Origin: Armatimonadota bacterium
GTDB lineage: Bacteria; Armatimonadota; Hebobacteria; CAIYQO01
Assembly (NCBI GenBank): GCA_044344305.1
Contig: JBIJDE010000003.1
Coordinates: 1 to 37,903 of the forward strand
Reading direction: 5' to 3'
DNA: 37,903 nt
A model generated the notes under the pieces. It saw only the letters and a program-made list of their open reading frames with translations. It was not told where the DNA came from and searched no databases. Positions 6,784-25,173 of this stretch are shown piece by piece. Position 1 is the stretch's first letter; every line of letters starts with the position of its first letter. The translations under genes and the position numbers were made by a program.

Positions 6784-6873
6784 AATTACAGGACTTTCTC
6801 TTAATATCGCTGAGCCTGTCGAAGCGACCACTTTTTAAATAGATTTCACTTGTAAAGCGAAAGTCCTGTAATT
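6784..6873. repeat. ~90-bp MITE/REP-like element, copy A
   Basis: Perfect 15-bp inverted repeat AATTACAGGACTTTC (6784-6798) / GAAAGTCCTGTAATT (6859-6873). Contains the hairpin TCGCTGAGCCTGTCGAAGCGA. Related copy at 35581-35661. Confidence 0.75.
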
Positions 6874-7464: not shown

Positions 7465-8886
7465 TCAGTATCCCCCGGTGATTGCAGGTCCAAGATCAAG
7501 TGCGGCAGCCAGGGCGTCAAAGCTCTGGCGGGTTAATTCAAAGCGCACTTCCGCACAGCCGGGATCGTCCCACAAGTTGTCAAACTCCCATGGATCCTGT
7601 TGCAGATCGAAGAGCTCACCCAAACCGGTCCCGTGGTAGATGGTTAACTTATAACGGCGGTTGCGAATCATAGTGGCCCGAGTGCCGGTATTCGGCTGCG
7701 GATGCTTGCCCATGGGGAGCGCGGCGTAGTATTCGCAGCGGACGAAATCGCGATGTTGTACCGGCAATGCACCGCCTTTCAGGATGGGAAGGAGTGAACG
7801 TCCCTGCATCTCCACGGGTACTGATAAACCGGCCAATTCAAGGAGCGTCGGGGCAATATCCGTCAGTTCAACCAGTGTCTCGCTACGCAGTCCGGCGGGA
7901 ATCTGTCCAGGTAGACGAAGCAGCAAGGGCACGCGCACCAGTCCCTCGTAGAACCGGCAGCCTTTCATCAGCAAGCCATGATCACCGAGGGTTTCGCCAT
8001 GGTCACTGGTGAAGATTACCAGGGTGTTCCCGGCCTGACCGGTGCGTTCGAGGGCATCGAGCATACGCCCGACATTCTCGTCGATCAACTCCACCATCGC
8101 CCAATAGGCGGCCTGCAGGCCACGGGCATTAAACGATTCCGGATGGCGCGGTTTGTTCTGAAAGTAATCAATGCCGCCAGACAGTTTCTCCTGAACAGCG
8201 AGGTCGCTCTCCTGGAAGTAAGGCCCCGGCATGGCGTCGACCGGATAGCGATCACTATAAGACTGCGGTGGGTCGAATGGCGCGTGAGGGTCGAATATGT
8301 TAACGCTGAACAGCCAGGGTTGGTCTCCTGCTGCTTCGATAAAATCTATGGCCCGGTCGGCGCACCAAGTGGTCTGGTGAAGTTCGGGAGGGATGCCGGC
8401 GGGATCCTTACGCAACTCGGCCAGGGAATATCCCTGTTTTGTCAGCCAGACATCGTACTCGTGGCCGGGATGGTCCAGATGGATCGGCCCGTGCGACCAG
8501 TGGAAGACGCGATAGCCGTCGTCGCCACGCTTTTCGATCCGGTTCTCAGCTGCCGCGAGGTGGAGCTTGCCAGAGAGTCCACAGTCGTAGCCAGCCTCGG
8601 ACAGGAGTTTTGTTACCAGGGGGGCGGCGCCGGCCCATACGTCGTTGCCGTTGCAACAGGCCTGTACCCGACTGGGATACATGCCAGTGAGAAAGCTCGC
8701 ACGACTGGGGGTACAGATAGGGCTTTGGCAATAAGCGTGCGTGAAGGCCGCACCCTCGGCCACCAGACGATCGAGGTTCGGAGTGTGAATGTGCTCGTTG
8801 CCCAGGGCGTGGATGGTGTCGAAACGCTGCTGGTCGGTGCAGATCCACAGAATATTGGGAGGTGTCATAGTCTTTTTTGTTTTCAC
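7465..8886 (-). CDS. Sulfatase (S1, Cys-type)
   Basis: PNILWICTDQQR, CTPSRASFLTG, GKLH, DPHAPF and FTSDHG motifs. Start is either GTG 8886 (overlaps the upstream stop, AGGA upstream) or ATG 8868; the 8937 start in the track is unlikely. Confidence 0.93.
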   Translation of the reverse strand: MKTKKTMTPPNILWICTDQQRFDTIHALGNEHIHTPNLDRLVAEGAAFTHAYCQSPICTPSRASFLTGMYPSRVQACCNGNDVWAGAAPLVTKLLSEAGYDCGLSGKLHLAAAENRIEKRGDDGYRVFHWSHGPIHLDHPGHEYDVWLTKQGYSLAELRKDPAGIPPELHQTTWCADRAIDFIEAAGDQPWLFSVNIFDPHAPFDPPQSYSDRYPVDAMPGPYFQESDLAVQEKLSGGIDYFQNKPRHPESFNARGLQAAYWAMVELIDENVGRMLDALERTGQAGNTLVIFTSDHGETLGDHGLLMKGCRFYEGLVRVPLLLRLPGQIPAGLRSETLVELTDIAPTLLELAGLSVPVEMQGRSLLPILKGGALPVQHRDFVRCEYYAALPMGKHPQPNTGTRATMIRNRRYKLTIYHGTGLGELFDLQQDPWEFDNLWDDPGCAEVRFELTRQSFDALAAALDLGPAITGGY

Positions 8887-11800
8887 GGTTGTATTCCTAT
8901 TCTTGCAGGGGTAATTGGCATCGCCGGCCATTCCCATTCGGCAATCTTTACAGTGTGCTTGCCGGCGGAAACGCCGAGGGCAATACTGAACTGTGGGGTA
9001 ATCGTACCTTTGCTGATTGTGGGTTCATCGGCGAAGCCGGCGCACCAGCGTACGCCATCCATCCAATAGCCGGGACGAACAATCTTCTCGGGCCAGGTGG
9101 TGACGATGGTGCGGACGCCGCCGTCCACTGTGCCGGTGATGCCGTCAGCAGTGAAAGTAAGGTCGAATGGCCCCATTCCGCGCACGCCCACGTTACCGTG
9201 GGTCAACTTCACGTATACAGGGGCGGGGGCGACGAAACGGATTTTCCCACCTTCAGCAATAACTTGAGACTCGGTCACAGCAGGGCCATTGATTTTATTA
9301 CTCTTGTAGTTGAGCTTGCTGCCGCGCAGCAGAACCAGCTCCGGCTTGCCGGTATTAGGTATACGCACTGTACCGGCTTGACCGCTAAACTCAATGCCAT
9401 CGCCTTTATATTCCAGTGACGTGGTCGATAGAAAGACGTAGTCGGTACCTTCCGCCGTGACAACCTTAGTGACACCAGGCGCGAGTTGCATCGCGATCGG
9501 TGTAGTCTCGCCAGCGCCGCGCGGATACAGCACCCAAGCTATCTCCTGACCAGGCGCGCTCTGCAAGCGCAGCGTCACATGCTGTTCCTTGCCCCCCACC
9601 CAGTCGCGCGACGTGCCGGTGGGTTTGTTATATGCTCCCACTTGCATCGGCAGGTCATCTTCGACCATCTCGAAGGCCGGGTTGGCGCGGTTAGTGAACA
9701 GCATATCCAGTTTAGTTGGCCATTCAGTATCGAGAGACACCTTTGCACCGTCCATAGTCACATTGGTTTTACGTCCGAGTAGACTGAGGTTAAACCAACT
9801 CGCAAGCTGACCACCCTGCCCTGAGCCCGTCGAAGGATCCACCTGGGTGCTGTCGCGGATGACGAAGTAATTCGCTCCCTTGGCGTTCGGGCTCTTGAGG
9901 AATGCGACCTGGCGGTCCCATGTGAAAGCGCCTTCCTTCTGAGCGAGCCCCGCGACGATTTCGCGCGGTCTGCCGAAATCCAGGTTGTACGCAGAATTTA
10001 CACGGTTTACATGCCCCTTCTGGTAGCCGGGGTTGATGAACCAGTCCGGATAACCGATCGACGCCCAGGCGTAGTCCATGTTCCCGTCGAAACAGGCATC
10101 AAGGATATTACTGTCGACCCAGTCGTGCGGTAAATCATTTCCTGGAGCGCCGAAGCGCAGGAAGTTCTTGTCGGGGAAACGGTTGTCCTTCGGCCCGCCA
10201 TACTGGTAAGGCTGGGGCGGCAGCAGCACCGCACCCTTGGCGTAGAGCATGAGGTTGCCCTGGTCCTGGTTCCAGTGACTCCAGTGATAGCCGCTGCGCA
10301 GGTAGAGTGCTGTTTCATCGGCGCCTTGATGCGCGCGGAAGATGACGCCATACCCGGGGTAAACGCGGCTGGTGAGTTTTGGCTCTTTCGCGGCAATCGA
10401 GGGCCGGATCATGGCCGGAATAGTAATGGCATCGGCGCCAGTGCCAATCATCCGGCCATTGTTTTCCCACGCCCACCGGAGGTTGGCGGCGAACTCCGGA
10501 TCCTTGTCCGCCACCGTGCCCATCGCTTGAAGGTAATGCGGTGACTGACCCACCGGTGAGTTAGCGGTGCCGGGAATGGTGCGCGAACCGTAGCGCGGGT
10601 CCACCGGTGAAAGCAGGTTGAGAAAGTAGTCGAAATCGGCTCGGTTGTAGGCCCAGGCACGCTCGGTGGCAGGCATCTTATCCGCAAGCACGCCCATCAG
10701 ACCACGCTCAATCTTACCATACCCGTGCATGTGATAGCTCGTGCCGTATTCCATCCACGCACCCTCGGGTGCCATGAGGGTGCCCTGCTTGTACGCGAGA
10801 AACGACCCCATATATTCGGCCCAGGTCTTGTGCATCGGGTGATCAGGAATCAGTGCCGCCAGGTTACCGCGGTCGGAAAGGCGCGCTACGCCCATATTTG
10901 GGTTGCCGTGGTGCGAGCCGTTGCCGGCGCTGGTTACGTCCGGTTCAGTTAGTAAGTACGAGAGCAAGGCCAATCGGGTACGCAGTTGCCGCCGTTCTTC
11001 AGCCGACAGTTTGGGGTTCGCCAGTGCCGCCTCGGCCGCGCCTACTGGGCCACCGAAGTCCCCAAGCGCTTGATGATGATGAATCGAAATCGACGAGACA
11101 ATGTAGTTGATGCTGGCCTGCAAACTGCGACCGGATCCGCCAGAAATGGTGGGCAGTTCACCCTGCGCCGGCTTCGCCAGCCAGTCAGGCGTGGTGAAGA
11201 CGCGCGGATACGCCACCTTGCCGTCGGGCCTGCCCTGAGCGGAGTCGAAGGGCCAATCCAGGATGTAATCCTTGTAGCGGTCAAGCCCGACCACGCCGTA
11301 GTAGATGCGCACAGCGTTGCCGACGCCGGCCGCTCCTTGAAGATCCTTCGAGGTCATGGCCGGCGGGGTCAGCACCAGCGCCCAGATGCGCCGGCCATAA
11401 GTGATCGACAACGCCGGGTCATGCTCATGACAGGAGAAGGGCGAGGTGTCAGAACGTGGTTCATTGAGCCACGAAGTTTGCGTGACGGACATAGGGAATT
11501 GCACACGCACCTGACCACCCTTCACATAGACCGGCATGCTGTTCGCGCGCCGCCAGTCACCCTTGTGCAGCGGGGCGATCATAGCCAGCGGATAGTTCTT
11601 GGGGTCAGCCTGCCGTGCCGCCGCCACGTGTACGCCGTAGTAAGAGACAAACTTGTCGTAGTAAATGCGCATGACCTTGCCATCGCCTGCCGCATCACCC
11701 AGAAGATCCTTTGATTTCATGGTCGGCGAGGTCGGCAGCAGCGCCCAGTCGCCCCAGCAGGAGTCATGATGGATGAAGCGCAACGGCCGGTTGTCTTCGG

Positions 11801-12812
11801 ACACGGGCTTGAGATTGGCATCCATATTGGCCGGCTTCGACTTCTCCTCGTCCGCCAGGCTAACGAAAGTAACCGGGCTGTTACCCTGGCCGGCAACGTT
11901 CATGTGCTCAGCCGCGTCCGGCTGCCAGCCCTTGGATAAATCAAGCTGCCAGAAGTCGGTGTCGGCCTCAACGCCGAGGTCATATTCTTCCCGCACCTGC
12001 GCAAATGGAGCGCGGTCGGTTACACGAATCATCGCCTGGTAATATCCGCCGCCGGTATATTCGAGTCGGTAGCATATTTCGGTGAAGACCGGGCCTTTGG
12101 CCGTCTGCATCACGGTGAATTTCTTGACCGGCCGCTTGCTCAGGATCGTACCAGCACCGCGCCATGCACCTGCCCCGAGCCCCATCGAAGGGTCTGCCCT
12201 GAGCCCCGTCGAAGGGTCTGCCCCGAGTTCCATCGAGGGACCATCTGGTCCGCGGAAAGCGAGGATCGGCGCGGGCAGCGTGTCCGCTGCGACCGGCTTG
12301 TTAAAATTCTTCTTCTGGAGCGCCGGCACCTTCACGGCCACCTGCTGGTTAGCGAGTACCAGCGCGTCGCCGTCCTTTGTCGCCGACACTGCCGGCGTAG
12401 CCGTCGGCTCTTTGCCGTCTGTGCGCAGCGTATAGGTTGCCGTGCCGTTCGGCGCGACCGCAGCCACAAAGGAGAGTGTGGCCTTCCCCTTCTCGCCCGG
12501 CGTCACCTGCACGGGCTGCGACTTGCCGGTGGCGTCGTCAACGCGCAGGCTCTTGCCACCGTCCTTCGGTAAGTCGATAGTGTAATTCACCAGGTCCGGC
12601 GGAAAGCCCCGCCCCGTCCAGTCCTTGAGGGTGATGGTCTGCGGCTCAGCCGCGGTCAGCAGGCTGCCAGCGAGTAGCAATGCCGCCAGCGCTATATATT
12701 TTTTGATCCGAGAAATATTGCCAGCCTGGACCGCCACTGGACCGGCCTCACCTTGTTTCTCGATAATCCGTTGGTGCCGCTGAATAATGCAGTTTTCAGG
12801 AGTCTTCTTCAT
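8883..12812 (-). CDS. Large secreted protein with heparinase II/III-like C-terminal module (putative polysaccharide lyase), paralog 1
   Basis: 1309-aa ORF with a hydrophobic signal-like stretch (KKYIALAALLLAGSLLTAA), HHGNPNM, PEGAWMEYGTSYHMH and GVIFR...SGYHWSHWNQDQGNLMLY. Highly similar to 12950..16669. Confidence 0.75.
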   Translation of the reverse strand: MKKTPENCIIQRHQRIIEKQGEAGPVAVQAGNISRIKKYIALAALLLAGSLLTAAEPQTITLKDWTGRGFPPDLVNYTIDLPKDGGKSLRVDDATGKSQPVQVTPGEKGKATLSFVAAVAPNGTATYTLRTDGKEPTATPAVSATKDGDALVLANQQVAVKVPALQKKNFNKPVAADTLPAPILAFRGPDGPSMELGADPSTGLRADPSMGLGAGAWRGAGTILSKRPVKKFTVMQTAKGPVFTEICYRLEYTGGGYYQAMIRVTDRAPFAQVREEYDLGVEADTDFWQLDLSKGWQPDAAEHMNVAGQGNSPVTFVSLADEEKSKPANMDANLKPVSEDNRPLRFIHHDSCWGDWALLPTSPTMKSKDLLGDAAGDGKVMRIYYDKFVSYYGVHVAAARQADPKNYPLAMIAPLHKGDWRRANSMPVYVKGGQVRVQFPMSVTQTSWLNEPRSDTSPFSCHEHDPALSITYGRRIWALVLTPPAMTSKDLQGAAGVGNAVRIYYGVVGLDRYKDYILDWPFDSAQGRPDGKVAYPRVFTTPDWLAKPAQGELPTISGGSGRSLQASINYIVSSISIHHHQALGDFGGPVGAAEAALANPKLSAEERRQLRTRLALLSYLLTEPDVTSAGNGSHHGNPNMGVARLSDRGNLAALIPDHPMHKTWAEYMGSFLAYKQGTLMAPEGAWMEYGTSYHMHGYGKIERGLMGVLADKMPATERAWAYNRADFDYFLNLLSPVDPRYGSRTIPGTANSPVGQSPHYLQAMGTVADKDPEFAANLRWAWENNGRMIGTGADAITIPAMIRPSIAAKEPKLTSRVYPGYGVIFRAHQGADETALYLRSGYHWSHWNQDQGNLMLYAKGAVLLPPQPYQYGGPKDNRFPDKNFLRFGAPGNDLPHDWVDSNILDACFDGNMDYAWASIGYPDWFINPGYQKGHVNRVNSAYNLDFGRPREIVAGLAQKEGAFTWDRQVAFLKSPNAKGANYFVIRDSTQVDPSTGSGQGGQLASWFNLSLLGRKTNVTMDGAKVSLDTEWPTKLDMLFTNRANPAFEMVEDDLPMQVGAYNKPTGTSRDWVGGKEQHVTLRLQSAPGQEIAWVLYPRGAGETTPIAMQLAPGVTKVVTAEGTDYVFLSTTSLEYKGDGIEFSGQAGTVRIPNTGKPELVLLRGSKLNYKSNKINGPAVTESQVIAEGGKIRFVAPAPVYVKLTHGNVGVRGMGPFDLTFTADGITGTVDGGVRTIVTTWPEKIVRPGYWMDGVRWCAGFADEPTISKGTITPQFSIALGVSAGKHTVKIAEWEWPAMPITPARIGIQP
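9817..9840. repeat. 24-bp in-frame hairpin insert (peptide DPSTGSGQ)
   Basis: TGCCCTGAGCCCGTCGAAGGATCC, preceded by CC. The same site is occupied in paralog 2. Confidence 0.8.
11231..11254. repeat. 24-bp in-frame hairpin insert (peptide PFDSAQGR)
   Basis: GGGCC[TGCCCTGAGCGGAGTCGAAGGGCC]AAT. The orthologous site in paralog 2 (~15320, TCAGGCCAATC) is empty. Confidence 0.88.
11655..11750 (-). repeat. In-frame, non-tandem diverged copy of segment 11295-11387
   Basis: DWALLPTSPTMKSKDLLGDAAGDGKVMRIYYD versus IWALVLTPPAMTSKDLQGAAGVGNAVRIYYG. Paralog 2 has a single Ser at this position. Confidence 0.85.
12171..12242. repeat. Three tandem 24-bp in-frame hairpin inserts
   Basis: TGCCCCGAGCCCCATCGAAGGGTC / TGCCCTGAGCCCCGTCGAAGGGTC / TGCCCCGAGTTCCATCGAGGGACC. 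Paralog 2 has one unit here. Confidence 0.88.
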
Positions 12813-12847
12813 CGTGTTCCCCTATTTCACCTTGCTGCAAGGTTGGA

Positions 12848-12908
12848 GGGTAAGGATTCGGTTGTTCCGCGCCTTACCCCGTGGGACGGACATCTTGCCC
12901 GTCCCACG
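12848..12908. repeat. Two adjacent intergenic hairpins, the second REP-like
   Basis: GGGTAAGG (12848-12855) pairs with CCTTACCC (12872-12879). CGTGGGACGG-ACATCTTGC-CCGTCCCACG (12880-12908) has a 10-bp perfect stem. No U-tract. Confidence 0.6.
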
Positions 12909-12949
12909 AGGAGGCATCAGAACCTACCGAATTATTCCCTTACCGGTTC

Positions 12950-15900
12950 CTATTTCTCCAGCGTCAGCGCAGTCCGCGCTGGCGGCGTTGGCATCGCCGG
13001 CCATTCCCATTCGGCGATTTTCACCGCGTGCTTACCGGCAGAAACACCGATGGCGAGGCTGAACTGAGGAGTTGCCATGCCTTTGCTGATTGATGGTTCA
13101 TCGGCGAAACCGGCGCACCAGCGCACTCCGTCCATCCAGTAACCCGGGCGGACTATTTTCTCTGGCCAGGTGGTAACAATAGTACGAATGTCGCCGTCTA
13201 CCTTGCCGATGATGCCGTCGGGAGTGAAAGTGAGGTCGAATGGCCCCATACCACGCACACCCATGTTGCCGTTGGTCAACTTCACGTATACAGGGGCGGG
13301 AGCGAAGAAACGAACCTTTCCACCTTCAGCAATAACCTGCTGTTCATTCGCTGCAGGACCATTGACCGTCTTACCCTTGTATTTAAGCTTGCTACCGCGT
13401 AAGAGGACCAGTTCTGGCTTACCTGTATTAGGTATACGCACTGTACCAGCTTGGCCGCTGAACTCGATGCCATCACCTTTGTATTCCAATGGCGTGGTCG
13501 ATAGAAATACATAGTCGGTGCCTTCCGTCGTGACGACCTTAGTTACACCCGGCGCGAGTTGCGTCGCGGTCGGTGTGGTCTCGCCGGCGCCGCGCGGGAA
13601 GAGTACCCAGGCGACCCCCTGACCCGGCGCACTCTGCAGGCGCAAGGCTACGTGTTGTTCTTTCTTATTGCCGTTAGTCCAGTCACGCGACGTGCCAGTG
13701 GGATTGCTATACGGTCCAACTGCAAGCGTCAGGTCATCTTCGACCATCTCAAAAGTCGGGTTGGCGCGGTCAGTGAAGAGCATATCCAGCTTGGTCGGCC
13801 ATTCGGTATCAAGCGACACCTTCGCACCGTCTATCGTCACATTGGCCTTACGCCCGAGCAGACTGAGGTTGAACCAACTCGCGAACTGACCACCCTGCCC
13901 TGAGCCCGCCTGTCCTGAGCCAGCCGAAGGGGCCGAAGGGTCCCCCTGGGTACTATCACGAATAACGAAGTAGTTCGCACCCTTGGCGTTCGGGCTCTTG
14001 AGGAACACAACTTGCCGGTCCCAAGTAAAAGCACCTTCTTTTTGACCAAGACCGGGGATCATCTTACCATTGACTCCGCCCCCCACGTTAGGAACCCCCT
14101 TGGCCCAGCCGGGAGGTGCGCCTGGAGTAATCCACCAATCGGGATAGCCGGTCGAATGCCAGGCATAGTCCACGTTCTGACCGAACTGCGCGTCGAGGAT
14201 GTTACTGTCAGACCAATCATAAGGCATTTCGGCTACCGGTGATCCGAACCTTAGGAAGTTCTTATCAGGAAAAGCAGGATCCTTTGGGCCGCCATATTGG
14301 TAAGGTTGCGGCGGCAATAACACTGCGCCTTTGGCGTAGAGAATCATATTCCCCTGATCATGGCCCCAGTGGCTCCAATGGTAACCGCTACGCAGGTAGA
14401 GCGCTGTTTCATCGGCGCCTTGATGCGCGCGGAAGATGACGCCATACCCGGGATAGACGCGGCTGGTGAGTGTTGGCTCTTTCGCGGCAATCGAAGGCCG
14501 TATCATGGCTGGAATGGTGATAGCGTCACCACCGGTGCCAACCATCTTGCCATTGTTTTCCCAGGCCCATCGAAGGTTGGCGGCTAATTCTGGGTCCTTG
14601 TCCGCCACCGTGCCCATTGCCTGGAGGTAGTGTGGCGACTGTCCGCATGGTGCATTAGCGGTGCCGGGGATGATACGCGAACCGTAACGCGGGTCTATTG
14701 GCGACAACAGGTTGAGTAAATAGTCGAAATCGGCGCGGTTGTACGCCCAGGCCTGATCCGCCTGCGGTGTCTTGTCAGCGAGTAGACCCATTATACCGCG
14801 CTCAATCTTTCCATACCCGTGCATGTGGTAGCTGGCGCCGTACTCAATCCATGCACCCTCAGGTGCCATGAAGGTAGCCTGCTTGTAAGCGAGGAACGAC
14901 CCCATGTAATCAGCCCAGGTCTTGTGCATCGGGTGATCGGGAATCAGCGCAGCCAGATTACCGCGGTCGGAAAGGCGCGCCACGCCCATGTTGGGGTTGC
15001 CGTGGTGTGAGCCGTTGCCAGCGCTGGTCACGTCTGGTTCGGTTAACAAGTACGAGAGCAAGGCCAGTCGTGTGCGCAATTGCCGCCGTTCCTCAGCCGA
15101 TATATTGGGGTTGGCCAGTGCCGCTTCGGCAGCGCCTACCGGTCCGCCAAAGTCCCCAAGCGCATGATGGTGATGAATTGAAATCGATGAAACGATGTAG
15201 TTAATGCTTGCCTGCAGACTGCGTCCGGATCCTCCTGAAATGGCGGGCAACGCTCCCTGCGCCGGCTTAGCCAACCAATCTGGAGTGGTGAAAACGCGGG
15301 GATAATTCACCTTTGCATCAGGCCAATCTAATACGTAGTCTTTATAGCGATCAAGACCTACTACGCCGTAATAGATGCGCACAGCGTTGCCGGTTCCTGC
15401 TTCTCCCTGAAGATCCTTTGATGTCATAGTCGGCGGGGTCAGCACTAATGCCCAAACGCGTCGGCCATAAGTGGTCGGCAATGCCGGATCATGCTCATGG
15501 GCGGAGAATGGTGATGTGTCAGAGCGTGGTTCTTTGAGCCACGAGGTTTGTGTGACGGACATCGGGAATTGCACTCGCACCTGTCCACCCTTCACGTAGA
15601 CCGGCATGCTATTCGCGCGTCGCCAGTCACCTTTATGCAATGGTGCGACTATGGCCATCGGATAGTTCTTGGGGTCGGCCTGCCGTGCTGCCGCGACTTG
15701 CACACCGTAGTAAGCGACAAACTTGCTGCCCCAGCAGGAATCGTGATGGATGAAGCGCAACGGTACGTCGCCACCAGTCTCGGTTTTTATATTAGCGTCG
15801 ATGCTGGCGGGTTTCGCCTTTTCCTCGACAGCCAGGCTAACGAACGTTGCCGGGCCATTACCCTGGCCGGCAACGTTCATGTGCTCCGCCGCATCCGGCT

Positions 15901-16669
15901 GCCAACCCTTGGATAAATCAAGCTGCCAGAAGTCGGTGTCGGTCTCAACGCCGAGGTCATATTCTTCCCGCACCTGAGCAAATGGAGCGCGGTCAGTGAC
16001 GCGAATCACGGCCTGGTAATAGCCGCCGCCAATGTACTCAAGGCGATAGCGGATCTCAGTAAACACCGGACCATTGGCTGTCTGAACCACTGTAAATTTT
16101 TTCACCGGTCGCTTAACAAGCATCGTTCCAGCACCACGCCATGCGCCTGTCCCGAGTTCCGTCGAGGGGCCGTCCGGGCCGCGGAACGCCAATATTGGTG
16201 CTGGTAGCGTATCGGCTGCGACAGGTTTGTCATAAGTATTATCTACAAGTGTAGGTACTTTCACTGCAAAATTCTGATTTGCGAGGACAAGGGTATCGCC
16301 ATCACGAATTGCCGATACTGTTGCCGGTGCTGCCTGATCTTTACCATCTGTTTGAATGGTGTAAACCGACGTGCCATTAACAGATACCGAGGCAACAAAA
16401 CTCAGTGTTGATTTCCCTTTTTCGCCCGGTGTTAATTGCACTGGCAATGACTTACCTGTGGAATCTAATACGCGCAAACCGGTGCCACCATCAGCAGGAG
16501 TTGGGATGATATAATTCACCAAATCCGGAGGAAACCCGCGACCAGTCCAATCTTTTATGGAAACCGTCTTCGGTTCAGCAAACACACTGATAGTAAGTAC
16601 TATCAGACTCAATAACGCAAACAATAGCTTTTTAGCTAAGTTTGAATTAAAAGTGAAGCAAATCATCAT
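12950..16669 (-). CDS. Large secreted protein with heparinase II/III-like C-terminal module (putative polysaccharide lyase), paralog 2
   Basis: 1239-aa ORF with a signal peptide (KKLLFALLSLIVLTISVFA-EP), the same motifs as paralog 1, and SHWGHDQG. The start overlaps the SGNH stop. Confidence 0.75.
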   Translation of the reverse strand: MMICFTFNSNLAKKLLFALLSLIVLTISVFAEPKTVSIKDWTGRGFPPDLVNYIIPTPADGGTGLRVLDSTGKSLPVQLTPGEKGKSTLSFVASVSVNGTSVYTIQTDGKDQAAPATVSAIRDGDTLVLANQNFAVKVPTLVDNTYDKPVAADTLPAPILAFRGPDGPSTELGTGAWRGAGTMLVKRPVKKFTVVQTANGPVFTEIRYRLEYIGGGYYQAVIRVTDRAPFAQVREEYDLGVETDTDFWQLDLSKGWQPDAAEHMNVAGQGNGPATFVSLAVEEKAKPASIDANIKTETGGDVPLRFIHHDSCWGSKFVAYYGVQVAAARQADPKNYPMAIVAPLHKGDWRRANSMPVYVKGGQVRVQFPMSVTQTSWLKEPRSDTSPFSAHEHDPALPTTYGRRVWALVLTPPTMTSKDLQGEAGTGNAVRIYYGVVGLDRYKDYVLDWPDAKVNYPRVFTTPDWLAKPAQGALPAISGGSGRSLQASINYIVSSISIHHHHALGDFGGPVGAAEAALANPNISAEERRQLRTRLALLSYLLTEPDVTSAGNGSHHGNPNMGVARLSDRGNLAALIPDHPMHKTWADYMGSFLAYKQATFMAPEGAWIEYGASYHMHGYGKIERGIMGLLADKTPQADQAWAYNRADFDYLLNLLSPIDPRYGSRIIPGTANAPCGQSPHYLQAMGTVADKDPELAANLRWAWENNGKMVGTGGDAITIPAMIRPSIAAKEPTLTSRVYPGYGVIFRAHQGADETALYLRSGYHWSHWGHDQGNMILYAKGAVLLPPQPYQYGGPKDPAFPDKNFLRFGSPVAEMPYDWSDSNILDAQFGQNVDYAWHSTGYPDWWITPGAPPGWAKGVPNVGGGVNGKMIPGLGQKEGAFTWDRQVVFLKSPNAKGANYFVIRDSTQGDPSAPSAGSGQAGSGQGGQFASWFNLSLLGRKANVTIDGAKVSLDTEWPTKLDMLFTDRANPTFEMVEDDLTLAVGPYSNPTGTSRDWTNGNKKEQHVALRLQSAPGQGVAWVLFPRGAGETTPTATQLAPGVTKVVTTEGTDYVFLSTTPLEYKGDGIEFSGQAGTVRIPNTGKPELVLLRGSKLKYKGKTVNGPAANEQQVIAEGGKVRFFAPAPVYVKLTNGNMGVRGMGPFDLTFTPDGIIGKVDGDIRTIVTTWPEKIVRPGYWMDGVRWCAGFADEPSISKGMATPQFSLAIGVSAGKHAVKIAEWEWPAMPTPPARTALTLEK
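13896..13943. repeat. Nested pair of 24-bp hairpin inserts
   Basis: TGCCCTGAGCCCGCC[TGTCCTGAGCCAGCCGAAGGGGCC]GAAGGGTCC. The inner copy (13911-13934) sits within the outer copy, with GCC repeated at both ends. Confidence 0.85.
16148..16171. repeat. 24-bp in-frame hairpin insert (peptide PSTELGTG)
   Basis: GCC[TGTCCCGAGTTCCGTCGAGGGGCC]. Corresponds to the third unit at 12219-12242. Confidence 0.78.
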
Positions 16670-17687: not shown

Positions 17688-19045
17688 GTCAACTCCTCGC
17701 CATTCGTTGCGATCAGCTTACTATACCAATCAAAACTGTCTTTCGGTGTGCGCTTCTGGGTGGCGTAATCTATATGAATCAGGCCAAACCGCTGTTTGTA
17801 GCCCTCGGCCCATTCAAAGTTGTCCATCAGCGACCAGTAGAAATAGCCACGCACGTCCACGCCGTCGCTGACAGCCCGGCTCAGTGCCTTCAGGTACTGT
17901 CGCGTGAAATGGATGCGGTACGGATCGTGGACCGCGCCGTCCTCGGTGACCCAGTCGTGGCCGGACATGCCGTTTTCGGTGATCACAATCGGCAGCTTGT
18001 AGCGTTCGGCCAGGAAACGTGGTCCCCAGTAGAGCGACTCTGGCACCGTGTGCCAACCCATCATCGTGATCGGGTGTCCCTGCACCTCCTGGCGCTCCGG
18101 ATAGTCGCCGGTGTCATTGGTACGCGGCTCGACGGTCACCCCGCCGTAGATGTTAGCCCCGAGAAAGTCCAGCGGTTGATGCATCAGTTCCATGTCTCCC
18201 GGCTGCACCGGCGGCAGAACGTCGTGGAAAAGTTTCAGATGGTCTTCCGGGTATCTTCCCAGAAGCATTGAATCCATATAGAAGGCGTTGTTGAAATGGC
18301 CACGGTTGGTGACGGCAAACATCGCCTGGCGCGCCAGTTCAATCCCTTCCGGGTTGTCTTGCGGCGGTATCTTGACGAATGCCGCCGGGGCAAAACCGAT
18401 TTGCGCGGGCTGGCGTGCCTCGGCGCGCAACGCCTGCACCGCCTTACCGTGTGCGCAAAAGGCATGATGGCAGACGCGCAGCATCTCGGCATCGGCATAC
18501 TTGACTCCCGGCGCGTGCGAGCCGGCCACGTGCCCGAGGGCCAGGAACATCTGCGGCTCGTTGAAGGTCATCCAGTTAGTGACGCGATCCGACAGGTGCC
18601 GGGCCACCACCTGGGTATACTCGGCAAACCAGTCAATCGAATCGCGGTTCAGCCAACCGCCGCGGCAGAAGAGTTCATGAGGATAGTCCCAATGAAACAG
18701 CGTTAGCCACGGCTGGATGCCGGCGGCCAGCAATTCATCCACCAGCCGGTCGTAAAAGTCCATCCCCTTTTCATTCACCCGCCCCACGCCCTCGGGCAAT
18801 ACCCGCGACCAGGAGACGGAGAAGCGATAGCCGCGCAGACCGAGTTGTTTCATCAGCGCCACATCTTCCCGCATCCGGTTATAATGGTCACAGGCGACAG
18901 CGCCGTCCTGACCGTTCCAGATGGCACCGGGCTTGCGGCAGAGCATGTCCCACACCGACAGACCGCGGCCGTCCGCGGACGCCGCACCTTCAATCTGATA
19001 CGCGGCCGTCGCCGCACCCCATACAAAATCAGTAGCAAATTTCAC
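17684..19045 (-). CDS. Glycoside hydrolase family 1 beta-glucosidase
   Basis: FVWGAATAAYQIEG, TFNEP (acid/base), ITENG (nucleophile) and WSLMDNFEW. Start set at GTG 19045 with AAGGAG RBS rather than 19138. Confidence 0.95.
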   Translation of the reverse strand: MKFATDFVWGAATAAYQIEGAASADGRGLSVWDMLCRKPGAIWNGQDGAVACDHYNRMREDVALMKQLGLRGYRFSVSWSRVLPEGVGRVNEKGMDFYDRLVDELLAAGIQPWLTLFHWDYPHELFCRGGWLNRDSIDWFAEYTQVVARHLSDRVTNWMTFNEPQMFLALGHVAGSHAPGVKYADAEMLRVCHHAFCAHGKAVQALRAEARQPAQIGFAPAAFVKIPPQDNPEGIELARQAMFAVTNRGHFNNAFYMDSMLLGRYPEDHLKLFHDVLPPVQPGDMELMHQPLDFLGANIYGGVTVEPRTNDTGDYPERQEVQGHPITMMGWHTVPESLYWGPRFLAERYKLPIVITENGMSGHDWVTEDGAVHDPYRIHFTRQYLKALSRAVSDGVDVRGYFYWSLMDNFEWAEGYKQRFGLIHIDYATQKRTPKDSFDWYSKLIATNGEELT

Positions 19046-19046
19046 A

Positions 19047-20057
19047 TCAATCTCCTTGGTTGAACAGGCCGTCAACGCGACGGCACAATGTTGATAACGC
19101 CGACCCGGCTCCGGCAAAGCGAGTGATCGAAGGCACACCGTCGATCCAGTCGAGTCGGTCGACGCACATCTGCCGGTCGGTCATGGCTTCGTTCCAGGCA
19201 TGGTAAACCGCGTAGTCCACGCCCTCGGGCGAAGTGACAATCGAGTGGTGCCCCGGCCCGATCACCTGGCCCGGCACCGAGCGCATTAGTTGCGGGCCGC
19301 GCTCGCAACCTATTTCCCGCCAGGGGCCAAAAATATTGTCTGCCTCCAGCCAGTCCACGCCGTAACTGTCATTCTGGTAACAGCCGCCAGAGTAGAAGCA
19401 GTAATAACGGTCGCCACGCTTGCAGACAGTCGGCCCTTCGAGTGTATACCAGTCAGCCACGACGCCATGGCTATTTTGCTGCACTTCGTACCGCTGCCAG
19501 GGCCAATGGGCGCGCATTACCACCTGCGGGTTGCCCTCCAGTTCGGTCATGTTTTTCAGGCGGTCCACCACCATCGCCGTACCACGATAAGTCTTGTCGT
19601 CAAAGTCAAGAAAGTTGGTCGCGTAGAACAGGTACCACTGGCCGTCATCGTCCTGGAAGGCGTGCGAATCGATGGCGAAGGGATTCTTGTCCGGATCGGT
19701 CAACGGCGTGCCAGTATCGCGGTACGGCCCTTCGGGGTGGTCGGCCACGGCGACGCGGATGTGATAGCCTCCCTTGTCGGCCCGGCAGGGATGGTAATAC
19801 ATATAGAAGCGATCATCGTGGACGGCGATCTCCGGCGCCCAAAAACAAATGAAGGGCTCAGTCGGCAGTTCGAGCACCCGCCCGACCCGTTCCCAATGTT
19901 GCAAGTCGCGCGACTTCACCATTGGCACCACGTGGGGCCCTTTGAAGGAGGGTGAGTAGCCCTCGCCCTTACCGGTGGCGACGGCGTAGTACCAACCGTC
20001 GTAACGAAAGCAGAATGGGTCGGCAAGATAGTCCGGTAGAACCGGGTTGTTTTTCAT
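19047..20057 (-). CDS. Glycoside hydrolase family 43
   Basis: ADP, WAPE, AIDS, LEGP and GPGH five-bladed propeller motifs. Confidence 0.92.
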   Translation of the reverse strand: MKNNPVLPDYLADPFCFRYDGWYYAVATGKGEGYSPSFKGPHVVPMVKSRDLQHWERVGRVLELPTEPFICFWAPEIAVHDDRFYMYYHPCRADKGGYHIRVAVADHPEGPYRDTGTPLTDPDKNPFAIDSHAFQDDDGQWYLFYATNFLDFDDKTYRGTAMVVDRLKNMTELEGNPQVVMRAHWPWQRYEVQQNSHGVVADWYTLEGPTVCKRGDRYYCFYSGGCYQNDSYGVDWLEADNIFGPWREIGCERGPQLMRSVPGQVIGPGHHSIVTSPEGVDYAVYHAWNEAMTDRQMCVDRLDWIDGVPSITRFAGAGSALSTLCRRVDGLFNQGD

Positions 20058-20070
20058 CAGGCATTCCTCT

Positions 20071-21510
20071 TTAAAAGTAACTGCGGCGCAGCGGCAAGGG
20101 GTCGGTGGTGAAGGCTATGCGGTCGCAGAGGTCGGCGAGGAGGTCTCCCCGTAGAGAAACACAGTCGTCCTGCCGCCAGCAGTTATGCAATTCGTGTGGA
20201 TCGACGAGGAGGTCGTAGAGTTCGCCGTCCTCCTGGCCATGGGCCCGCACCAGTTTGTACCGTGATGTGCGTATCATGCTGGCCCAGGCTTGGGGATCGT
20301 GACTGAAGCCGGCGTTGCCATATTCGCAATATACGCTCTCGCGATGCATACGGGACAGGTCAGGGTCAGCGAGTAGCGTCCCAAGAGAGCACCCCTGCAT
20401 GCCGGGGTGTTCCGGCTGGCCGCACGCCTCGAGCAGGGTTGGGGCAAGGTCCACCAATTCGACCAGAGCGTCCCGGCGCGTCCCTGGGGCGATCCGGCCG
20501 GGCATTGCCAGTATCAGCGGAACCCGCACTGCCCCCTCATAAAAGTATGGCCCCTTGAGGTAAAGACCATGGTCGCCCAGCATCTCCCCATGATCAGAAG
20601 TGAAGATTACCAACGTATTGTCACGCTGCCCGGTCTCGTCAAGCACCGCCAACAGGCGGCCAACTTTTTCGTCGATGTCCTCGACCATGGCGTAGTAGGC
20701 GGCCCGGATCCAGCGTTGGTCGCGGTCGCTCATACCGGTTGCTGTCATCCCCTTACCACCATAAGCGCCGCGCCGATCGATGGCCTGCCACACCGGCTTG
20801 TCCGCGTCCTCTCCCTCCCGGCGCCATGGCAGAGGGAGTCCATCAACCCGTCCGCGCCAGTCCTCGACCCGGTCAGCGGGCAAACGGAACGGATGATGGG
20901 GATCGAAGAGATTGAGCGAAAAGAGCCAGGGCCGTCCATCGTTCGGAGCCTGGCGAATGAAGCCCTCAGCCATTGCCGCCGCCCAGGCTGTGGCGGTGCC
21001 ATGAGAGGGCGGGCCAACCTCGACCTTGGGGGCGTCGGGAAGCAAGGTAAACTGCCGCGACAGACCGAGTCGATCAAGCCATTTCCCGTATGCGGCCCAA
21101 GGCCACTGGTCGTGGTGCCAGAAGAAGGCCGTATCGTCGTAGCCGTCATCAATGCGCCGCTCTGGTTGCCCCTGTAGGATTTTTGGATCGCAGGCACTCA
21201 GGTGCAGCTTGCCAGCCAGGCCGCAGCGCCAACCGGCGTCCCGCAACAGTCGGGTAACCAGAATCTCGTCAGCCGGTATATTCTGGCCATTTTGTCGGCA
21301 ACGGGTGGTACGGGGATAGCGGCCGGTGAGGAAGCTGGCCCGACTCGGGGTGCACACCGGCGACTGGCTGAAGGCGAGTGGGAATAAGGCACCATCACCC
21401 GCCAGACGGTCAAGGTGCGGAGTACGGACATGCGGGTTGCCAAGACACCCGAGGGTGTCCCAGCGCTGCTGGTCGGTGGTAATCCAGAGGATGTTGGGGC
21501 GATCATTCAC
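20071..21510 (-). CDS. Sulfatase (S1, Cys-type), homolog of 7465..8886
   Basis: PNILWITTDQQR, CTPSRASFLTG, GKLH, DPHHPF and FTSDHG motifs. Confidence 0.93.
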   Translation of the reverse strand: MNDRPNILWITTDQQRWDTLGCLGNPHVRTPHLDRLAGDGALFPLAFSQSPVCTPSRASFLTGRYPRTTRCRQNGQNIPADEILVTRLLRDAGWRCGLAGKLHLSACDPKILQGQPERRIDDGYDDTAFFWHHDQWPWAAYGKWLDRLGLSRQFTLLPDAPKVEVGPPSHGTATAWAAAMAEGFIRQAPNDGRPWLFSLNLFDPHHPFRLPADRVEDWRGRVDGLPLPWRREGEDADKPVWQAIDRRGAYGGKGMTATGMSDRDQRWIRAAYYAMVEDIDEKVGRLLAVLDETGQRDNTLVIFTSDHGEMLGDHGLYLKGPYFYEGAVRVPLILAMPGRIAPGTRRDALVELVDLAPTLLEACGQPEHPGMQGCSLGTLLADPDLSRMHRESVYCEYGNAGFSHDPQAWASMIRTSRYKLVRAHGQEDGELYDLLVDPHELHNCWRQDDCVSLRGDLLADLCDRIAFTTDPLPLRRSYF

Positions 21511-22697
21511 GAGCTCTGACCTCCCAGCTCCATCCGGCAGTGCGACCAGCCTTGCGGGGTTCTGAGGTAGAGCGTCGCGGCGCCGTCCCCGGCCAGCCAG
21601 CGGACTTCGCCGATCTGCCCTTCGTCGAACCGCGGCGCTTCGGCGCAGGCATCCGCGAGTCGCACGCCTTCTCCGGCAAAGCCGACCACCGGTTGCCAGG
21701 ACGCCCCGCCGGTGCCGGAGGCGAACTGGTTGATCTGCTGGTCGCGCGGGACGTGCGGATTGTACAGTGTGCCGACCACGGTGCAGGCCTCCAGCGTGCC
21801 GTCAAAGACCTTCACGAAGGGGTGCTTCGCCGACGGGTTGATGAAGGTGCCGGCGAAGAAGCAGTGCGTGCCGCGTCCGGTCAACCGGACGGCGACCCCC
21901 TGCGATCCTTCGAGCTTCAGCCAATCGCCCCCGCCCTGCACCATGCACGATTCGAAGCGCTGGAACGGCGCATCGACGAGGAAGCCGACCTCCTGGCACT
22001 CGTCCACCTGACACTGGCTGAAGCAGTCGTTCCAGCCGCCGCAGTGGAAGCCGATCTTGAACGGGCGGTGCCGCCCTTTCCAGACATGGACCTGATGCCA
22101 GCAGGTGCTGCCGGAGGCGCCCTTGACGCCGATGTCGTAGCCGATCGTCAGCAGTTGGGTGACCTGGTTGTCGCTGCCGCGCACGACCTCGACGCCGATC
22201 GCGTCGGGCAGGCAGGTCACGTCGAAATCGATCTGCACGCGCACTCCGCGCAGCGTCGTCTCGTACCAGCCTTGCTCGCCGATGCGGATGCCGCCCGCCA
22301 GGCAGTTGAAGATCTCCAGGTCGTGCAAGACGAACCGGCGCGTCCAGCGGCCGATGACGCCGTGGATCGGCAACTTGCCGCCGTCGATGATGCCGCCGCC
22401 GATGCGGCCCGAGTAGCCATGCGCTGTCCAATCCAGGTCGCCGGCCGGCCTCTCGCCCTTGATGACGACAGCTTCCCCCTCGAAACCAGGCATGGCGAAG
22501 AGCCGCGCTGCCGGCGCCATGGCGATCGAGACGTGGTTGGGCACGACGACCGGACGCAAGACGCCGAAGTCGCCGTCCGGAATGTGGACGGTCGCCTGGT
22601 CGCAGTCGGCCAATGCGGTACACGCGGCGGCGAAGGCCGACGACCAGTCGCCGGCCGGGCCGGGTTGGAAGTCAAGTATCGAGATGCCTCTGTTCAT
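21507..22697 (-). CDS. Right-handed beta-helix protein (pectate_lyase_3-like), homolog of 5716..6750
   Basis: DWSSAFAAA...IPDGDF leader, GGIIDG, QVHVW and GWNDCFSQC. AGGAG RBS; strong GC3 bias in this frame. Confidence 0.78.
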   Translation of the reverse strand: MNRGISILDFQPGPAGDWSSAFAAACTALADCDQATVHIPDGDFGVLRPVVVPNHVSIAMAPAARLFAMPGFEGEAVVIKGERPAGDLDWTAHGYSGRIGGGIIDGGKLPIHGVIGRWTRRFVLHDLEIFNCLAGGIRIGEQGWYETTLRGVRVQIDFDVTCLPDAIGVEVVRGSDNQVTQLLTIGYDIGVKGASGSTCWHQVHVWKGRHRPFKIGFHCGGWNDCFSQCQVDECQEVGFLVDAPFQRFESCMVQGGGDWLKLEGSQGVAVRLTGRGTHCFFAGTFINPSAKHPFVKVFDGTLEACTVVGTLYNPHVPRDQQINQFASGTGGASWQPVVGFAGEGVRLADACAEAPRFDEGQIGEVRWLAGDGAATLYLRTPQGWSHCRMELGGQSS

Positions 22698-22705
22698 CGG
22701 GTCTC

Positions 22706-24775: not shown

Positions 24776-25173
24776 AAGGTCTCCATTTGATTAGGGCTGC
24801 CGACAACGACAATCATCACCCGTGCATAACCGTCGGTATACTGGTTGATGCGTTTGGCCAGGTAGGCGCGGACATAGCCGGCCTCAGAGGCTGGCGCGGT
24901 GATGACGCTGAGGTCGAAGGCAAAGGTGGTCGCGTCGGTAGGCTGGCCCAGGGTCGCGAACGGCACGAGCAATCGCACCCGGTAGCGGCCAGCTCCTGTC
25001 ACGAACGCAGAGCTCACCGCAGATTCGTCGACGAGACCGTGATCAGTCACACGCTGGATGCGCGCCGGCCATCCACCCGGACCGCCCGGAAAATCTGTCC
25101 CTACAGATGGAGCAGTAAACCCCATAACATTTAATAAACCAGTTAACAACAGAGATATGATAAAGTATTTCAT
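24772..25173 (-). pseudogene. In-frame chimeric ORF: SGNH-type signal peptide fused to half of a CBM9-like domain
   Basis: MKYFIISLLLTGLLNVMGFTA resembles MKYFAISLLLTGILNIMGFTA (17409). The remainder matches the C-terminal ~85 aa of the adjacent sulfatase. Composition switches from AT- to GC-rich near 25090. Confidence 0.75.

Follow-up and report, generated by a model that had tools for sequence, protein, structure and literature searches.

A 24-nt module nested in an older copy of itself in a lyase-like gene of an Armatimonadota bacterium: probable self-insertion of a very small hairpin-forming repeat

Among the small repeats described from bacteria, the small dispersed repeats SDR1-8 of Nostoc and its relatives appear to be the closest known analogue by behaviour of the element reported here. 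These repeats of 21-27 nt, which Elhai and colleagues are said to have presented in 2008 as 'very small mobile repeated elements', reportedly form a hairpin with compensatory changes, insert into one another to give nested copies and lie in runs of heptamers and in mini-transposons. Rickettsia palindromic elements (RPEs) are selfish palindromes of about 100-150 nt found in one genus, which lie in frame in protein genes and are translated as an extra surface segment. RPEs are mentioned in a review (PMC10969869), and two further papers (PMC3116915, PMC3733652) deal with the REP/REPIN sequences (repetitive extragenic palindromes) and their RAYT (Y1 HUH) transposases. REP/REPIN sequences are short hairpin repeats, imperfect palindromes of 20-40 nt with a conserved GTAG/CGTC head, that often occur in inverted pairs and flank the RAYT gene. 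Here we analyse a stretch of 37,903 nucleotides from an Armatimonadota bacterium (contig JBIJDE010000003.1 of assembly GCA_044344305.1; hereafter the window) that carries two paralogous lyase-like genes, in one of which a GC-rich 24-nt module is nested inside a second copy. We argue that the inner copy probably entered the loop of an older copy as a whole unit, and that local slippage followed. The host genome, G000, comprises 5.1 Mb in 660 contigs (83% complete, 42% GC), and a genome of the same genus, G001, carries the ortholog of paralog 2.

The module is 21-24 nt long and GC-rich, and consists of a 5' half, (C)CCYTCGRC, a spacer of 2-4 nt and a 3' half, GCTCRGGRCAGG(C). Paralogs 1 and 2 are adjacent in tandem on the same strand, their proteins are 81% identical, and the module occupies three sites in them (A, B and C; Table 1), at which it is read in three different frames. 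This use of one nucleotide sequence in three frames marks the module as an element of the DNA and not a protein motif. At site C, paralog 2 has eight residues more than paralog 1 (GDPSA-PSAGSGQA-GSGQGG vs VDPST-GSGQGG); on the plus strand, paralog 1 reads ...CCCTGCCCTGAGCCCG joined directly to TCGAAGGATCC, and paralog 2 reads ...CCCTGCCCTGAGCCCGCC(TGTCCTGAGCCAGCCGAAGGGGCC)GAAGGGTCC, the extra bases being those in parentheses. On the coding strand the 48-nt composite runs CCTTCGGC, then CCCTTCGGC-T-GGCTCAGGACAGGC, then GGGCTCAGGGCAGGGT. The placement of the inner unit is ambiguous by 3 nt (GCC on the plus strand), and the position used here, 13908-13931, is equivalent to 13911-13934 of a preliminary description of this DNA. 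That description had proposed that an extra 24-mer lies within an element shared with paralog 1, in a nested arrangement and not as a permuted tandem copy. Both points are confirmed, since the composite parses as one unit inside another and removal of the inner 24-mer leaves an outer unit that differs from the unit of paralog 1 at one of 24 bases.

The unit matches in the window are not due to chance, because a 17-nt degenerate pattern of the unit has three matches against 0.04 expected and none of 100 shuffles reached three. Nor is the composite an artefact of assembly, because contigs from four other lake-water runs agree with it. They show the same arrangement with no indel reported: X2 record 3, X5 record 14 and X7 record 15 cover at least 13779-14150 with two substitutions and no gaps, and X3 record 4 covers 13700-13963 without a difference. 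No allele lacking the inner copy was seen in the contigs of these four runs, which, as contigs drop rare variants, does not imply that such alleles are absent. In the 90% protein cluster, six of the eight members have two 5' and two 3' halves at site C (the 2+2 form), and the other two read DPST-GSGQA-GSGQA-GSGQG, which is the form of the G001 ortholog. The DNA of this ortholog, CCTTCGAC-A-GGCTCAGGGCAGGC-G-GGCTCAGGGCAGGC-G-GGCTCAGGGCAGGGT, has one 5' half followed by three 3' halves, the last 15-mer of which is identical to the outer spacer and 3' half of the composite. Paralog 1 and two paralog-1-like metagenome proteins carry a single unit, which bears out the earlier proposal that the insertion took place after the gene duplication (or the last conversion).

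Nesting as at site C is typical of the family. Metagenome contigs were scanned for a doubled 3' half (GCTCAGGRCAGG, 0-4 nt, GCTCAGGRCAGG), which gave at least 120 stretches; the metagenome counts given below refer to the 120 listed, of which 111 arrays were kept after removal of four cut by the end of the locus and of exact duplicates. When the 5' and 3' halves were counted, 64 of the 111 arrays were (2,2), five were (3,3) and one was (4,4), so that 70 have equal numbers with at least two of each. Only eight arrays were (1,2), 17 had no recognisable 5' half, and 16 were unequal in other ways: (2,3) 3, (3,2) 7, (3,5) 2, (4,3) 2, (6,3) 1 and (11,6) 1. A doubled 5' half was found in none of the 19 single units seen with their flanks. 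Slippage of half-units cannot explain this coupling of 5' and 3' half numbers. It is explained if whole units enter the loops of other units, and members of the family typically do insert in this way, in the middle of a unit already in place. Among 79 doubled cores that were parsed, the second unit starts directly after TCGRC in 64, directly before GCTC in ten and elsewhere in five. The two spacers differ in 72 cores and are the same in seven, with 62 distinct spacer pairs; shuffles gave 3.6 ± 1.8 cores with the same spacer, and 131 of 2000 shuffles reached seven. Non-coding doubled forms are mostly 45-47 nt long and hence not multiples of three. To our knowledge, no arrays in which n 5' halves precede n 3' halves have been described for the SDRs.

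Viral contigs were also searched. Five of the six arrays with a strict doubled 5' half also have at least two 3' halves; with a loose 3' pattern, 34 of 60 were (2,1) and 18 were (2,2), many of the (2,1) cases being chance coding matches. For comparing the order of mixed stem variants, these contigs offered one doubled array, and the class only those of G000 and G001. Inverted units nested in loops gave 17 distinct matches in viral contigs, only two of which (L305 and L323) are real, and two loci of the metagenome set (L114 and L208) look like inverted units in the loop of another unit; in both sets these cases are too few to count.

Homologs of the two genes reveal that the three sites have been occupied repeatedly. 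A search at E <= 0.001 gave 171 proteins, and most of the 120 listed have no insert at any of the three sites (PD^GAW, W^PD and GD^GK, with ^ at the junction). On a quick FastTree tree of the 108 homologs of at least 1000 aa, built after gap-rich columns had been dropped, occupied homologs are scattered. The fewest changes required are five at site A (5 occupied of 88 scored), eight at site B (8 of 108) and 11 at site C (12 of 107); the regular expressions used to score occupancy overlooked paralog 1 at site A and protein P0089 at site C. The inserts at site A lie one codon apart in the genes of G000 and G001 (DG^AW) and in those of G401 (DGA^W), and these are therefore separate events. DNA was examined for 47 homolog loci. 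The metagenome-assembled genome (MAG) G401 has nine divergent paralogs, five of which carry the module at site C: as a single unit in L029 and L031, as a tandem double in L054 and as a nested double in L060 and L050, the inner unit of L050 being diverged. Site C is empty in L033, L066 and L068, and L067 has a different insert (..PLASSRLREDATARQTGPA..) in the same loop, possibly of another mini-element family. At site C, L060 reads CCTTCGAC, then CCCTTCGGC-A-GGCTCAGGGCAGGC, then AGGCTCAGGGCAGGCG, and the nesting point within the unit is the same in L060 and L050 as in the window. Protein P0026, which is 65% identical over the compared region, also has the 2+2 order at site C and reads GPSTGLGT at site A. 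At site B of L060 the halves of the unit are separated by about 28 nt of other GC-rich sequence (PFDAA-PASAEATAGR-QGRS).

The preliminary description had envisaged a targeted insertion at (G)CC with a short target duplication. Neither the (G)CC target nor the duplication is supported. New units enter at the loop of an existing unit and not at (G)CC. As for the duplication, the shared GCC/GGC is an overlap of the 3' end of the unit (..CAGGC) with the 5' half (..TTCGGC), the junctions of the nested copy in L060 share only a single base, and in none of the 79 doubled units is the spacer duplicated on both sides. A second candidate, the motif GAYGGY ('GACGGC'), was considered as a target rule since it is found at, or close to, all three sites A, B and C and one unrelated insert, the insertion point of site B being 0-5 nt upstream of it. 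We do not claim this rule; the motif was chosen post hoc, these genes contain about 3.3 instances of it per kb, and only 7/15, 4/16 and 8/16 of empty sites have it.

Beyond this gene family, 401 genomes of the phylum were searched for the pattern CCTTCGAC-N2-5-GCTCAGGGCAG; 28 of them contain it, at up to 28 copies each, and none contains its reversed control. Among the 31 genomes of the class, 15 have a slightly wider pattern of the module, with 83 copies in total. Five further genomes gave 21 copies (G401), three copies (G402), one copy (G404, a Brocadiia MAG) and no copies (G403 and G405). Many copies lie in long open reading frames (ORFs) unrelated to the lyase-like family, mostly in the PSTGSGQA frame; copies are also seen in non-coding DNA, and those in ORFs lie on either strand. 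In G402, a SASA-type esterase contains a clean insert of eight codons, F-A-(PRPGSGQA)-GQK, which is absent from six homologous sequences. A longer hairpin repeat of G401 (three copies, L075, L087 and L091) has the module in the loop between GGAGCGGAGCCGCTTCCGGCTCCG and its complement. A search of the window and 12 loci with arrays against Rfam (E <= 1) gave no match, and the literature searched yielded no description of the module.

The loop into which units insert is closed by a covarying pair. In 108 units (25 rows plus 83 rows, by our own tally and including copies related through descent), the base before TCGRC and the base after GCTC are T-A in 85, C-G in 19 and T.G in four, and C.A does not occur. 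This covariation points to a 4-bp stem, CCCY/RGGG, closing the loop TCGRC-N-GCTC. The T.G intermediate is a wobble that pairs on the strand of the module only, and a covarying stem specific to one strand points to a single-stranded intermediate. The GC-rich module has this 4-bp stem only, followed by a 3' tail, CAGG, and its two halves are not inverted relative to each other, as terminal inverted repeats would be. Hairpins with longer stems and the same loop are resident in G000, as 64 copies of GGTC[A/G]CT-TCGACARGCTC-AG[T/C]GACC whose stems covary A-T/G-C; among matches to the core in this genome, 68 of 142 have a flanking stem of at least 4 bp, vs one of 66 in the reversed control. Since these residents share its loop on longer stems, the module is a short-stemmed, GC-rich variant of a hairpin family in which the loop is the conserved part.

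The resident hairpins of G000 are either solitary in runs of TTTTCAG-type heptamers or occur as pairs in longer units, and 25 of the 64 form a direct plus an inverted copy at the centre of a unit of about 120 nt with inverted ends CAGGACTTTCGCTTAA. A hairpin of the resident type in the window (Table 1) lies inside a unit of about 80 nt with inverted ends (6788-6869) in an intergenic gap. A further repeat, GGGGACTGGCAC-TTCGGCAAGCTCAGCAC.., is present in AT-rich spacers of contigs C79, C575, C660 (two copies) and C40 of G000; it shares the core TTCGRC-AA-GCTCAG and has no obvious stem.

From the observed anatomy of the composite, the covarying stem pair, the recurrent use of the same sites by homologs scattered over the tree and the coupling of half numbers across the family, we propose the following course of events. 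The 24 extra bases would be another copy of a very small insertion module without coding capacity, which as a single strand of this polarity may fold into a mini-hairpin with stem CCCY/RGGG and loop TCGRC-N-GCTC. Such a module would multiply within genomes, its preferred target being the loop of an existing copy, and repeated self-insertion would yield 'onion' arrays in which n 5' halves precede n 3' halves; a copy that comes to lie in frame in a protein loop able to tolerate it would simply be translated. At site C, a single unit would already have been present in the ancestral lyase-like gene, and a second unit would have entered its loop after the split of paralogs 1 and 2 and before that of G000 and G001. 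The resulting homogeneous sub-arrays may then have slipped, giving one 5' half and three 3' halves in G001 and two identical 9-mers in G000. We infer that the inner copy arrived as a whole unit, that insertion made use of a single-stranded intermediate and that it was carried out by a function acting in trans.

The composite might instead be the product of two independent local slippage duplications, an older one of the 15-nt 3' half, shared with G001, and a recent one of the 9-nt 5' half in G000. The preliminary description had dismissed slippage on the grounds that it would give a permuted tandem copy, and this was too strong: an exact duplication of 9 nt and a diverged one of 15 nt would produce the same sequence, and Tandem Repeats Finder resolves the region into just such arrays, a 15-nt array at 13886-13925 (2.7 copies, 80% match) and an exact 9-nt array at 13923-13940 (2.0 copies). 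The three 15-mers behind one 5' half in G001 and their identical spacers show that 15-nt slippage is real at this site, the two 9-mers of G000 share a derived G, unequal arrays such as (3,2), (2,3), (3,5), (6,3) and (11,6) make up 16 of the 111, and the 83%-complete genome holds no donor copy. We nevertheless regard two separate slippages as less likely, because independent events would not couple the numbers of halves, and a doubled 3' half is accompanied by a doubled 5' half in 64 arrays as opposed to the eight in which it is not, with no doubled 5' half among the 19 single units. The 2+2 topology recurs in the divergent L060, L050 and P0026. Moreover, the extra 15-mer differs from its neighbour at three of 15 positions, two of which, the first and last base, separate the inner-type from the outer 15-mer in both G000 and G001 and are changed toward the form of the family (..GAC-A/T-GGCTCAGGRCAGGC). 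These differences, the near identity of the outer unit to that of paralog 1 and the recurrent topology all argue against a purely local origin. It is much less probable still that recombination or gene conversion imported the doubled segment from a homolog already doubled. A gene like that of P0026, which shares the 2+2 order and is similar at site A, could be such a source, and the paralogs lie in an island of 57-60% GC in a genome of 42% GC; however, the flanks of the composite follow the lineage of paralog 2 and G001 (91% identity), the outer unit matches that of paralog 1 at 23 of 24 bases, the GC-rich module is confined in G000 to these two genes save for one diverged match in contig C407, and conversion between genes that are 40-65% identical seems unlikely. 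The possibility that the repeats are a selected Gly/Ser/Pro linker of the protein, with no DNA element involved, is barely credible. The insert does lie in a loop predicted to be disordered (residues 487-507), where changes of length are tolerated, but a linker is contradicted by the use of the same nucleotides in three frames at three sites, by copies in non-coding DNA and on either strand of ORFs, and by the lengths of the non-coding doubled forms.

Insertion of a whole unit followed by slippage therefore remains the reading we favour, and a number of results weigh against it. The 9-mers of G000 are identical and both have G where paralog 1 and G001 have A, which fits a recent local duplication, and the simple parse by Tandem Repeats Finder and the slippage in G001 point the same way. 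The genome-wide search for the closest match to the inner 24-mer, suggested in the preliminary description, found no second copy in the 83%-complete G000, the next-best matches having five mismatches, so that no donor with the sequence of the inner unit is present there. There is no consistent target duplication at sites A-C or among the 79 doubled units. Energy-based folding of the single, tandem and nested forms was no better than that of shuffles (z -0.7 to +1.8), and the covariation counts are inflated by copies related through descent. The counts of halves rest on the metagenome matches listed; some of the (2,2) arrays stem from the copying of a single composite repeat, and the 64 are thus not all independent events. 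Within the class (31 genomes), G000 and G001 alone have doubled 3' halves. As for a partner protein, none of 13 DUF559 (PF04480) loci in five genomes (G000, G055, G092, G221 and G401) lies within 1.5 kb of a module or a stemmed core hairpin, and none of eight Y1-transposase (PF01797) loci in G000 has a core hairpin within 1.5 kb.

Compared with the described systems, the module resembles the SDRs in being 21-24 nt long, dispersed, multi-copy and non-coding, in having a small hairpin with compensatory changes (its folding energy alone not being significant), in the nesting of copies within copies (in the window, L060, L050 and 70 of the 111 arrays) and, as regards the resident hairpins of G000, in lying within heptamer runs and within small units that look like transposons. 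Unlike the SDRs, it has an apparently different sequence and a 4-bp stem plus the 3' tail CAGG, and it lands repeatedly in frame at the same loops of one protein family. It is found in MAGs of the PVC (Planctomycetes-Verrucomicrobia-Chlamydiae) group, Lentisphaerales-like and other, and in many metagenomes, not in cyanobacteria, and is not a member of the SDRs by taxon. Each of the next three candidate homes for the module fails a defining feature. Like RPEs, it can lie in frame and be translated, as at sites A, B and C, in the SASA esterase and in a loop that is disordered in the model, but at 21-24 nt it has no long palindrome and no significant folding energy. As with REP/REPIN sequences, for which movement in single-stranded form is assumed, there are direct plus inverted copies among the resident hairpins of G000 (25 of 64); however, the module lacks a GTAG or CGTC head, its conserved part is the loop and not the stem, its copies lie inside genes and the Y1-transposase loci of G000 are not near hairpins. 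MITEs (miniature transposable elements with inverted repeats) differ in that the halves of the module are not inverted repeats and no consistent target-site duplication accompanies it, and repeats linked to DUF559 differ in that none of the PF04480 loci is near a module. The module shares with mini- and microsatellites the variation of its 9-nt and 15-nt sub-arrays and of the 24-nt array at site A between close relatives. The 9-nt and 15-nt sub-arrays are head-to-tail copies as in such satellites, but the 24-nt unit at site C of paralog 2 is nested, and slippage as the sole cause leaves unexplained the coupling of halves, the differing spacers in 72 of 79 cores and the presence of the module at unrelated loci.

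More tentatively, the module may be one stem variant of a widespread family of hairpin elements of 21-27 nt that share the loop TCGAC-N-GCTC on freely varying stems, move as one specific single strand and prefer their own loops, and that would be served by a widely shared function. If this holds, arrays of n 5' and n 3' halves would be a readable record of serial self-insertion by elements that are among the smallest mobile elements known and active far outside cyanobacteria, and protein loops hit many times independently would serve as a natural target assay. At this size an element can hold neither a gene nor the ends of a classical transposon. The locus and its homologs offer dated steps, with single, nested and slipped forms in close relatives, as well as hot spots in one protein family that were hit independently at least five, eight and 11 times, and together with a strand-specific stem these make the mechanism testable. 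For annotation, patches of eight residues of the PSTGSGQA-, FDSAQGR- or STGLRA-type in metagenome proteins would be scars of the element and not motifs.

Table 1. Positions of the two lyase-like genes, of module units at sites A-C and of a resident-type hairpin in the window (^, junction of the empty site).
Feature	Position	Strand	Details
Paralog 2	12950-16669	minus	1239 aa; heparinase II/III + alginate lyase fold
Paralog 1	8883-12812	minus	1309 aa
Site C of paralog 2, composite of two nested units	13892-13939	minus	48 nt, 16 codons, DPSAPSAGSGQAGSGQG
Inner unit at site C of paralog 2	13908-13931	minus	24 nt, CCCTTCGGC-T-GGCTCAGGACAGGC
5' half of outer unit at site C of paralog 2	13932-13939	minus	CCTTCGGC
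Spacer and 3' half of outer unit at site C of paralog 2	13892-13907	minus	GGGCTCAGGGCAGGGT
Site C of paralog 1, single unit	9813-9836	minus	24 nt, read PSTGSGQG
Site B of paralog 1, single unit	11229-11252	minus	CCCTTCGAC-TCC-GCTCAGGGCAGG, read PFDSAQGR; GGCCC on both flanks
Site B of paralog 2, empty	15317-15328	minus	..TGG^CCT GAT..
Site A of paralog 1, three head-to-tail units	12171-12239	minus	older diverged unit + two near-canonical units
Site A of paralog 2, one diverged unit	16145-16168	minus	C-G stem variant, read PSTELGTG
Resident-type hairpin	6806-6829	minus	GGTCGCT-TCGACAGGCTC-AGCGAT, loop as in module

The array at site A of paralog 1 is translated in the third frame, as PSMELGA DPSTGLRA DPSMGLGA, and Tandem Repeats Finder reports it with a period of 24, 2.8 copies and 86% match. 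No Pfam family was found for paralogs 1 and 2. The C-terminal 816 residues have a predicted fold (pTM, the predicted template modelling score, 0.88), and the model resembles alginate lyases and heparinase II/III (6jp4_A, E 2.6e-17; 4mmi, 4fnv and 2fut). In this model the insert at site C lies in a disordered connection between two strands (residues 487-507), with a predicted local distance difference test (pLDDT) below 50 at residues 490-500, and because of this location it is most likely a tolerated extension of the loop. The family of homologous proteins has grown in relatives, where a single genome has as many as 41 matches.

The neighbours of the two paralogs encode five sulfatases, a heparinase II/III, GH1 and GH43 enzymes, a GDSL esterase and a SASA esterase. 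Both paralogs and several of the sulfatase and glycosidase genes lie in blocks of 55-68% GC (window positions 8000-16000 and 18000-25000), compared with 36-44% in the flanks of the contig and 42% in the genome, which suggests that the blocks are imported DNA. Paralog 1 also carries, at residues ~385-415, an insertion of 31 residues (DWALLPTSPTMKSKDLLGDAAGDGKVMRIYY) that is absent from paralog 2 and appears by eye to be a diverged copy of a segment about 110 residues downstream (WALVLTPPAMTSKDLQGAAGVGNAVRIYY).

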